Part shown: piece by piece, positions 17,110 through 17,345 of the stretch | How positions within the stretch are numbered: the stretch's first letter is position 1 | Layout: every line of letters begins with the position of its first letter | DNA from: an uncultured Candidatus Saccharibacteria bacterium | Lineage (GTDB): Bacteria; Patescibacteriota; Minisyncoccia; UBA6257 | Assembly (NCBI GenBank): GCA_964479005.1 | Contig: CAYZJA010000001.1 | Coordinates: forward strand, 224,001-288,000 | Direction of reading: 5' to 3' | Length of the DNA: 64,000 nucleotides | Notes under the pieces: generated by a model | What the model was told of the DNA's origin: nothing | The model's database searches: none | Seen by the model: the letters and a program-made list of their open reading frames with translations, nothing else | Translations under genes and position numbers: made by a program

Positions 17110-17152
17110 TTTTCTTCCTCCCTTTTAAATTTTTTTATTTTATATTATTAAA

Positions 17153-17210
17153 CTATTTACTATATAACTAACTACTAATAATTTATAATAATCAGTTATA
17201 TAGTAAATAG
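17153..17210 (-). promoter_or_regulatory. 5'-UTR hairpin (17-bp stem) of regulatory module copy 1
   Basis: CTATTTACTATATAACT and AGTTATATAGTAAATAG form a perfect inverted repeat around a 24-nt loop. The paralogous copy at 18290-18335 has compensatory arm changes. Confidence 0.55.
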
Positions 17211-17239
17211 TAAAAATATTGTTTTTCAAAGAACTAAAA

Positions 17240-17258
17240 ATATCCTATTACAGGATAT
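17240..17258. promoter_or_regulatory. Operator-like perfect palindrome ATATCCT-N5-AGGATAT at the predicted transcription start
   Basis: A 7-bp inverted repeat with a 5-bp spacer sits immediately downstream of the -10 TATACT (17263-17268). The -35 TTGACT lies at 17286-17291 with a 17-bp spacer. The same site occurs at 18365-18383. Confidence 0.55.
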
Positions 17259-17309
17259 CATAAGTATAACATATTTTATATTGTTAGTCAATATATAATT
17301 TAGCTGGGG

Positions 17310-17329
17310 CTATGGAACGATGTTGGAAC
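17310..17329 (-). promoter_or_regulatory. Conserved upstream motif GTTCCAACATCGTTCCATAG
   Basis: This is one of six intergenic occurrences of the GTTCYAACATCGTYC core. The others are at 17755, 18430, 55281, 57613 and 57011. It sits about 20 bp upstream of the -35 box. Confidence 0.5.
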
Positions 17330-17345
17330 TTATTTCATAGAAAAA

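Follow-up and report, generated by a model that had tools for sequence, protein, structure and literature searches.

The 64-kb stretch of DNA analysed here, called the window below, has a G+C content of 30–32% and was treated as belonging to a bacterium of the Candidate Phyla Radiation (CPR, or Patescibacteria); the best named matches of its exonuclease III, the xth product, are in Candidatus Portnoybacteria (Parcubacteria), at 70–72%. Two genes on its minus strand, coding for proteins of 134/137 and 201 amino acids (aa), lie behind closely similar upstream regions, and the make-up of these regions, a 33-nt motif followed by a promoter and leader of about 190 nt (the module, copies A and B), is the subject of this analysis. 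The minus-strand segments 18240–18455 and 17107–17335 share 85.6% identity over aligned bases, or 80% if gap columns are counted, and the products encoded downstream have zero BLASTP similarity to each other; a simple hydropathy count predicts transmembrane (TM) segments in both. A first-pass annotation, made from the window sequence, had described a duplicated segment of about 190 bp in front of two unrelated genes, each copy with a sigma70-like promoter, a perfect palindrome at the predicted +1, a hairpin in the 5′ untranslated region (UTR) and a strong Shine–Dalgarno (SD) sequence. The duplication, the unrelatedness of the proteins, the promoters (both with TG ahead of the −10 hexamer), the strong SD in both copies and the minus-strand places of all the listed elements are confirmed (Table 1). 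Each copy also holds a small hairpin within GTTnTTTGAAAAACAAT. A second promoter considered within the leader (TTGAAA ...) was rejected for its poor spacing.

Table 1. Coordinates of the features of the window discussed in the text
Feature	Position	Strand	Remarks
Promoter, copy A: TTGACT-17 nt-TATATT, TG (extended −10)	18388..18416	−	Spacer also conserved in 30 copies
Palindrome P1, copy A: ATATCCT-GTAAT-AGGATAT (18365–18383), then TTTTT (18360–18364)	18360..18383	−	At predicted transcription start
Long hairpin P3, copy A: about 26 bp, G–U pairs on minus strand only	18279..18336	−	
SD GGAGG (18251–18255) and ATG (18240–18242) of the 134-aa gene 17838–18242	18240..18255	−	
Promoter, copy B: TTGACT-17 nt-TATACT, with TG	17263..17291	−	
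Palindrome P1, copy B (17240–17258), then TTTTT	17235..17258	−	
Long hairpin P3, copy B: 25–26 bp, compensatory differences from copy A	17152..17211	−	
SD (AAGGGAGG) and ATG (17107–17109) of the 201-aa gene 16504–17109	17107..17126	−	
Type-1 motif (AAATAGGTTCCAACATCGTTCCATAGGACCAGC), ends the preceding cassette	18423..18455	−	nhmmer census; putative P-type half-site or attR scar
Type-1 motif (AAATAAGTTCCAACATCGTTCCATAGCCCCAGC), begins 11 nt past the stop codon of the 118-aa gene	17303..17335	−	nhmmer census
Third type-1 motif, then generic hairpin, T-run and TGGTAAAAT promoter, without module	17749..17781	−	
Type-2 motif (AAACAGGTTCTAACATCGTCCAGTTCCCGGAGC), upstream of a 62-aa gene	55276..55308	−	
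Type-2 motif, upstream of a 176-aa gene	57618..57650	−	Candidate attR of an element starting at tRNA-Asn
Generic hairpin-T6-GGTAGAAT unit	17710–17744, 19960–19994, 53782–53823, 57566–57607	−	
Large serine recombinase gene, 531 aa	62265..63860	+	tRNA-Asn 3′ end, read as its reverse complement, supplies the last codons (..PTLLRG*)
tRNA-Asn(GTT) 3′ exon, B-type half-site of the target	63848..63894	−	tRNA split by a group I intron
tRNA-Ser(GGA), head of the variable island with both module copies	20732..20821	−	Island ends at the xth promoter, about 16403

The two module copies belong to a conserved promoter–leader family with at least 31 distinct copies, found in the window, in 14 metagenome contigs and in 4 genome-collection contigs (about 19 contigs of related uncultured bacteria; loci other than the window carry an L number below). 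These were collected with a profile built from the two window copies, a palindrome scan of metagenomes having first given many true homologues. All share one order, which runs from an extended −10 promoter through a palindrome with T5, GTTCTTTGAAAA, a hairpin of 23–26 bp and an A-rich linker to a strong SD. Thirty copies were aligned over the stretch that reaches from the −35 element as far as the start codon, and the alignment divides into two zones. Hardly any sequence change is seen at the 5′ side in the promoter with its spacer, the stems of the palindrome, T5 and GTTCTTTGAAAA; the 3′ zone is that of the long hairpin (P3), for which at least two unrelated sequence types exist (CTATCTGCTATATAACTGATCATTAC... 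and ATAGGCACAAGGAAAGTGG...), alike in architecture. Searches for a known counterpart gave no Rfam 15 family at gathering score over the module, the best sub-threshold models being unrelated microRNAs (E ≥ 0.17), and a riboswitch or an already described leader was rejected for want of an Rfam match. The searchable literature returned nothing on the module and motif sequences or on CPR cassette arrays, and the module was not found in viral contigs (IMG/VR). A leader peptide starting at the invariant TTG of GTTCTTTGAAAA was also discarded, the stop position and the frame length varying from 10 to 30 codons. As a separate observation, a phage-like contig of 42% G+C (L044, 5887–5982, minus strand) carries a short module, consisting of promoter, palindrome, T5, AGTTCATTTAAAAC and SD without the long hairpin, ahead of a Mu Gam-like gene.

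The first-pass annotation had given the leader hairpin as 17–18 bp; its presence and the compensatory changes between the copies stand, whereas its length has to be corrected to 25–26 bp (about −28 kcal/mol) in both copies. Folding of the sense strand of the leader gives −41.3 and −39.5 kcal/mol (z of −5.6 and −6.2), compared with −30.4 and −27 kcal/mol for the opposite strand, on which the fold is weaker because several P3 pairs are G–U. Across the 30 copies, RNAalifold and explicit pair counting define 23 pairs with 98.3% of the cells paired; both sides have changed in 12 of the 23 pairs, the observed covariation is reached in none of 500 shuffles (0/500), and sliding the partner columns by 1–3 positions brings pairing down to 32–52%. 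The alignment holds 117 G–U cells, and pairing falls from 98.3% in sense to 82.2% in antisense, in agreement with the earlier remark that G–U pairs form on the minus strand only. From this strand asymmetry and the covariation it follows that P3 is under selection on the sense strand, and its place between promoter and ribosome site points to RNA; a structured 5′ UTR, as proposed at first, is thus upheld by homologous copies. With its 23–26 continuous pairs P3 has the near-perfect duplex of about two helical turns, and at least 20 bp, that characterizes RNase III substrates, and it would act post-transcriptionally, as a double-stranded RNase III or stability element. We regard this as its most likely and most economical role. 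The ribosome site is left free by the duplex, which is perfect and spans two helical turns or more. Two other roles were rejected: that of an SD-sequestering thermometer or attenuator, the SD being about 30 nt downstream and unpaired in all folds, and that of an integron attC site, the arms of P3 having no R or L boxes. It is also very unlikely that promoter, palindrome and P3 form a free-standing small RNA that stands upstream of genes by chance: the strong, conserved structure (−40 kcal/mol, z of about −6) and a U/A-rich stretch after P3 in the common sequence type would suit such an RNA, but all 29 readable copies have, in the same orientation, an SD and a start codon no more than about 30–45 nt behind P3, the second P3 sequence type is followed by runs of A and not of U, and the terminator scan called nothing after P3.

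The genes behind the 30 copies encode some 20 unrelated proteins of 37–230 aa, about half of which have no predicted TM helix. The module is therefore not the mark of a small regulon of membrane proteins, which had been the first interpretation and which fails on this diversity; it is a portable expression unit for single small accessory genes. Among the neighbouring genes of the arrays are an S-adenosylmethionine (SAM) methyltransferase, a RibD_C reductase, a radical SAM enzyme, a helix-turn-helix protein and toxin–antitoxin pairs. Directly upstream of the first module copy, the window itself has (18544–19521, minus strand) a SocA/Panacea-domain protein of 175 aa and its 148-aa partner, a toxin–antitoxin-like pair inside the variable island. 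Most other genes are preceded by a different unit, made of a hairpin ATCGCC-N5-GGCGAT, T6 and GGTAGAAT, with about 7 nt to the ATG; in it a terminator-like hairpin is fused to an extended −10 promoter, and the genes appear leaderless.

The sequence immediately upstream of the module behaves differently. The first-pass annotation had included the motif GGTTCCAACATCGTTCCATAG in the regulatory module; it is indeed present in both upstream regions, exact at 18430–18450 and with one mismatch at 17310–17330, zero matches being expected in shuffles, but it is not part of the module. Rather, it belongs to a 33-nt unit with a sharp right boundary after ...AGC. The search for further sites that had been suggested brought the total in the window to five, each of them a minus-strand copy lying among small accessory genes, and an nhmmer census counted 58 in 188 kb of related loci. 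Three of the window copies (17749–17781, 55276–55308 and 57618–57650) precede other promoter types, the unit behind the first of these being the 118-aa PNPOx-like gene 17346–17702. What follows the 58 motifs is the module in 21 cases and the generic hairpin-T6-GGTAGAAT promoter in at least nine, the rest being other sequence. Conversely, genuine tRNA 3′ ends, of tRNA-Asn (L065, L106) and tRNA-Trp (L026, L180), can occupy the motif's position before the module. The left end of the module always coincides with this boundary, at constant spacing, whether it stands behind a motif or behind a genuine tRNA end, and the boundary is also the crossover point of a recombinase, as described below.

Several comparisons relate the motif to tRNA 3′ ends. 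Five genomes part immediately after the tRNA-Asn sequence ...CCGCGGAGC (...GGAGC), and in L064 and L178 the native 3′ flank of tRNA-Gln(TTG) directly follows type-1 motifs, as expected for attR, the right-hand attachment (att) site of an insert. The motif repeats form a family of their own, similar to tRNA 3′ ends but with a common extra segment of 5 nt: judged by sequence comparison only, the distance from the GGTTC(T/G)AA block to ...AGC is 20 nt in the motif and 15 nt in tRNA-Gln and tRNA-Asn. In serine integrases the motif bound by the zinc-ribbon domain lies 5 bp farther from the crossover in attP than in attB half-sites (PMC3783163), and the block displaced by 5 bp in our motif matches this known shift. 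No internal inverted repeat was seen in the motif on inspection. That the motif is the decayed 3′ end of a local tRNA was rejected in its simple form, all types carrying the same extra 5 nt, a P-type feature; a true tRNA-Gln-like fragment of 26 nt does head the arrays in L104 and L064. An activator site of OmpR type with direct repeats, GTTCCA-N5-GTTCCA, was likewise dropped, the motif being accounted for as recombinase tail and att half-site. Two further observations were made at such boundaries. In L182 (1773–1905, roughly window coordinate 65040–65170, past the window end), TTGACA-17-TATCCT stands immediately behind a tRNA-Gln(CTG) and is linked to a 66-aa gene by a leader of some 90 nt with a strong SD; here TTGAC begins 5 nt nearer to the tRNA end than it does behind the motif. 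The IMG/VR contig L198, of 52% G+C and with terminase, portal and capsid genes, ends (14690–14819) in about 120 nt of AT-rich, CPR-like DNA and a type-2 motif, the composition switching exactly at ...GGAGC, which marks either the att-site junction of a prophage or a chimeric assembly.

The recombinase in question is the large serine recombinase (LSR) encoded next to the tRNA-Asn gene of the window. Its Pfam matches are PF00239 (3.9e-21), PF07508 and PF13408, i.e. the Resolvase, Recombinase and Zn_ribbon_recom domains, an architecture also present in L220–L222. The tRNA-Asn(GTT) gene (63848–64000, minus strand; 2796–3098 in L182) has a group I intron in its anticodon loop (RF00028, 64 bits) and is missed by ARAGORN; the same intron-split arrangement occurs in L179 and L106. 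In the window the attL junction GGAGC/AACGTAGG falls at 63847/63848, and here, as in L220 and L221, the LSR reading frame abuts or overlaps the tRNA 3′ end, giving a tRNA/AAYRTNGGAYTTTG junction. L222, a phage-like contig, has a motif/AACATCGGACTTTG junction instead: the motif, which here lies within the LSR frame, takes the position occupied elsewhere by the tRNA and, read as its reverse complement, codes for the protein end ...PMLLR-LLDDVRTCLMGP.... The expected hybrid junctions are thus both found, of attL type in the window, L220 and L221 and of attP type in L222. A search for LSR homologues gave 5984 at E ≤ 1e-30, and the C-termini of 120 of them were sorted by pattern matching: 49 read into the tRNA T-arm (..DSN..), 47 stop within about three residues, and the remaining 24 keep a tail, e.g. 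LLDDVRTC, LCDNIRTC, DAFRTFDW or AWNKVRTWYF. Translating the reverse complements of motif types 2/3, 4 and 1 yields these tails. The comparison of reading frames and junctions thereby identifies the motif with the recombinase tail and with an att half-site, and we have good confidence, from sequence, that it represents the P-type half-site of tRNA-targeting LSRs, i.e. a displaced tail-coding end left as an attR-type scar. In the free element, the other strand of the motif would encode the C-terminal tail of the recombinase; integration at a tRNA 3′ end would move the motif to the far end of the insert as attR, and motif copies would consequently mark the right ends of inserted units in the variable islands next to tRNA genes.

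The surroundings of the modules have the character of such islands. In a close relative (L223) whose flanks are 87% and 93.6% identical to the window, MamF and tRNA-Ser(GGA) are followed by a pair of unrelated genes, a single type-1 motif and then xth with its promoter. Between tRNA-Ser and xth, the window has seven genes and three motifs, L223 two other genes and one motif, and no gene is common to both; more distant relatives have other gene sets between a tRNA-Gln gene and xth. Insertions or deletions bounded by motifs distinguish L026 from L089 and L104 from L064, the extra units being on the tRNA-proximal side in each pair. The locus therefore turns over between relatives, and the idea of a local regulon as the origin of the duplication finds no support: both copies sit in strain-specific cassettes of a hypervariable island. 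At the other end of the window, the 6.2 kb from the tRNA-Asn gene (63848) to the motif at 57618 hold the recombinase, three small genes, LOOT RNA (RF03000, 72 bits, 59856–59970, minus strand, between the recombinase block and the genes that follow), a methyltransferase–Mrr fusion and HicAB, all missing in L179; this segment is probably one integrated element. Elsewhere in the window (21388–21574 and 34143–34339, plus strand) lies a direct repeat of about 190 nt with 89–92% identity and no Rfam match, one copy between htpX and a MamF-like gene and the other over the called start of corA, which may be an undescribed RNA or leader.

The palindrome (P1) deserves separate consideration. ATATCCT-N5-AGGATAT is perfect at the predicted start of each module transcript, as had been noted, and occurs in that form nowhere else in the 64 kb. 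Across the 30 copies its stem is almost invariant and its 5-nt loop varies; there are zero compensatory changes and 24 G–U cells compared with about 5 broken ones, one divergent lineage shows a symmetric double change (ATACTCT-N5-AGAGTAT), and the T5 behind P1 is invariant. The constraint on sequence together with the symmetry fits a protein site, and equally a hairpin whose 5′ arm is constrained by the promoter. P1 could accordingly be a possible operator for a common repressor, the 5′ hairpin of the transcript or, with T5, a weak insulating terminator that would keep transcription of the preceding tRNA or cassette from running through; such a terminator would not affect the module's own transcripts, which would begin within the 5′ arm of P1. 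Several upstream units, e.g. the 118-aa gene, have no terminator of their own. A resemblance of the first hairpin of LOOT RNA to P1 was judged coincidental.

The behaviour of P1 also speaks for the original idea that motif, promoter and palindrome form one regulatory region, served by a repressor, in a membrane-protein regulon, to which an activator at GTTCCA-N5-GTTCCA might be added. The perfect palindrome over the predicted start, with its near-invariant stem and variable loop, the variant that stays symmetric and the position of the motif, 58–75 nt upstream of the −10 element in five of five window copies, would all suit this idea. We nevertheless consider it unlikely: the downstream genes belong to about 20 unrelated families, half of them non-membrane, and the motif, absent from the core-genome parts of the window, is a tail-coding att half-site found inside recombinase genes too. 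The motif thus loses its proposed role as an upstream regulatory site to that of an att half-site or scar, which occurs before other promoters and at the 3′ ends of recombinase genes as well. The search for a nearby transcription factor that the first-pass annotation had recommended found none in the scanned neighbourhoods.

The constant position of the module behind the crossover raises the question of whether its 190 nt act at the DNA level, as a recombination arm, the motif and module start being an attP-like site and the hairpins acting as single-stranded DNA in the manner of integron attC. The fixed boundary and spacing, the similarity of the module start AAACATTGAC(T)TTT to the right half-site of the elements, AACATCGGACTTT, and a hairpin asymmetry that is compatible with one DNA strand could be so explained. 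For serine integrases, on the other hand, some 50 bp of double-stranded DNA are enough and a 190-nt arm is not required (PMC3783163), many junctions have the motif without the module, and the copies are not consistent in the offset at which they resemble the right half-site; moreover P3 lies between a good promoter and a good SD, always in gene orientation, and is dispensed with in the short version ahead of the Mu Gam-like gene. We find this reading distinctly unlikely. We give scarcely any credence to a promoter-carrying miniature inverted-repeat transposable element, of Correia-like kind, inserting upstream of genes. Many copies ahead of unrelated genes and a long inverted repeat with an outward-reading promoter do recall such elements, but the inverted repeat is internal and not terminal, no target-site duplication is seen, the left boundary is always the recombinase crossover point, the orientation is always that of the gene and of the tRNA at the head, and the G–U pairs form on one strand only.

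Taken together, we favour, at a probability of roughly 0.7, the reading that two separate things meet upstream of these genes: a motif that is the att half-site or scar of an LSR, and a portable expression module of about 190 nt that starts at the recombination boundary. Several points weigh against it. The likeness of the motif to particular tRNA ends is only moderate, 14–20 of 23 positions once the 5 extra bases are taken out. No recombinase lies inside the cassette arrays examined, and canonical serine integrases do not re-use attL, so that the stacking of single-gene units behind one tRNA is not accounted for. With regard to the module, G–T wobble stabilizes single-stranded DNA hairpins too, and the asymmetry of P3 marks the strand but is no proof of RNA as the folded molecule; P1 is weak (−7.3 kcal/mol, two G–C pairs) and was not called by the terminator scan; both the transcription start and hairpin processing are predicted; and the scanned neighbourhoods of the modules hold no regulator gene.

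The left ends of the units are conserved, each being either the module or one of two generic promoter ends and starting exactly at the crossover. This conservation, together with the loose likeness of the module start to the right half-site, suggests a cassette-like mechanism supplied in trans. It may even be, although we hold this tentatively and incline to the contrary, that a CPR serine integrase runs an integron-like system, in which single-gene cassettes bearing their own promoters and a tRNA-mimicking end of 33 nt would be captured serially at tRNA 3′ ends by recombinases acting in trans, the attachment site being spanned by the recombinase frame. If so, the junction of motif and module would be the functional att site of a recombinase-less mini-element, and captured genes would be active on arrival.

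CPR bacteria have very small genomes and, to our knowledge, few recognised mobile elements and almost no characterised regulatory signals. The module is a widespread leader outside Rfam, appears to be a standard expression unit for newly acquired small genes, and offers a handle on how genes are transcribed and mRNAs processed in organisms not yet culturable on their own. The motif, if it is an attP-type half-site of a very common recombinase, would explain the hypervariable islands next to tRNA genes and serve as a marker for the islands and their cargo. Moreover, tRNA 3′ ends and motifs, with the expected offset of 5 bp, are candidate natural attB/attP pairs for a large integrase family as yet unexplored, a matter of interest for integrase engineering.

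Among known leaders, the module is best compared with 5′-UTR hairpins that act via RNase III or through protection of the 5′ end, namely the Correia elements of Neisseria and the 5′ stem-loops of ompA and ermC. Like them, it places a perfect duplex longer than 20 bp in the leaders of numerous unrelated genes and has a small hairpin at the very 5′ end of the transcript; it differs by lacking terminal inverted repeats or a transposition signature and by its unrelated sequence, and its cleavage or stabilization is only putative. On the side of recombination, the A118/LI (Listeria), Bxb1 and phiC31 integrases resemble the LSR described here in their Resolvase, Recombinase and zinc-ribbon domains, in hybrid junctions with one exchange point and in the outward displacement of the distal block by 5 bp in the P-type half-site relative to the B-type (PMC3783163). 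Unlike in those systems, the target here is the T-arm and acceptor 3′ end of a tRNA, attP lies inside the integrase reading frame so that integration swaps the C-terminal tail, and attR-type copies stand stacked in large numbers, one gene apart and with no integrase in residence.

Integron arrays have in common with the arrays of these islands the co-oriented small and mostly uncharacterised genes, a single conserved recombination site at the 3′ end of each unit, toxin–antitoxin pairs and apparent growth at the head. Here, however, there is no IntI, the site does not have the form of attC, a hairpin with R and L boxes (inspection of the 33-nt motif and the P3 arms gave no RYYYAAC ... GTTRRRY boxes), the cassettes have their own promoters and a tRNA gene stands at the head; the Pfam tables over about 60 kb around the window and the array genes scanned contain no Phage_integrase-type gene. 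The closest parallels in island architecture are the tycheposons of Prochlorococcus, which also form variable islands next to tRNA genes with repeated partial-tRNA-like sites, in which newer units appear to push older ones off the tRNA and degenerate units lack an integrase (bioRxiv 10.1101/2020.12.28.424599). Whereas tycheposons use tyrosine recombinases and true partial tRNA repeats, the gene at the tRNA-proximal end is here a serine recombinase, the repeat is a tRNA-mimicking recombinase-tail or P-type site, and most units consist of one small gene with a conserved promoter end of its own.

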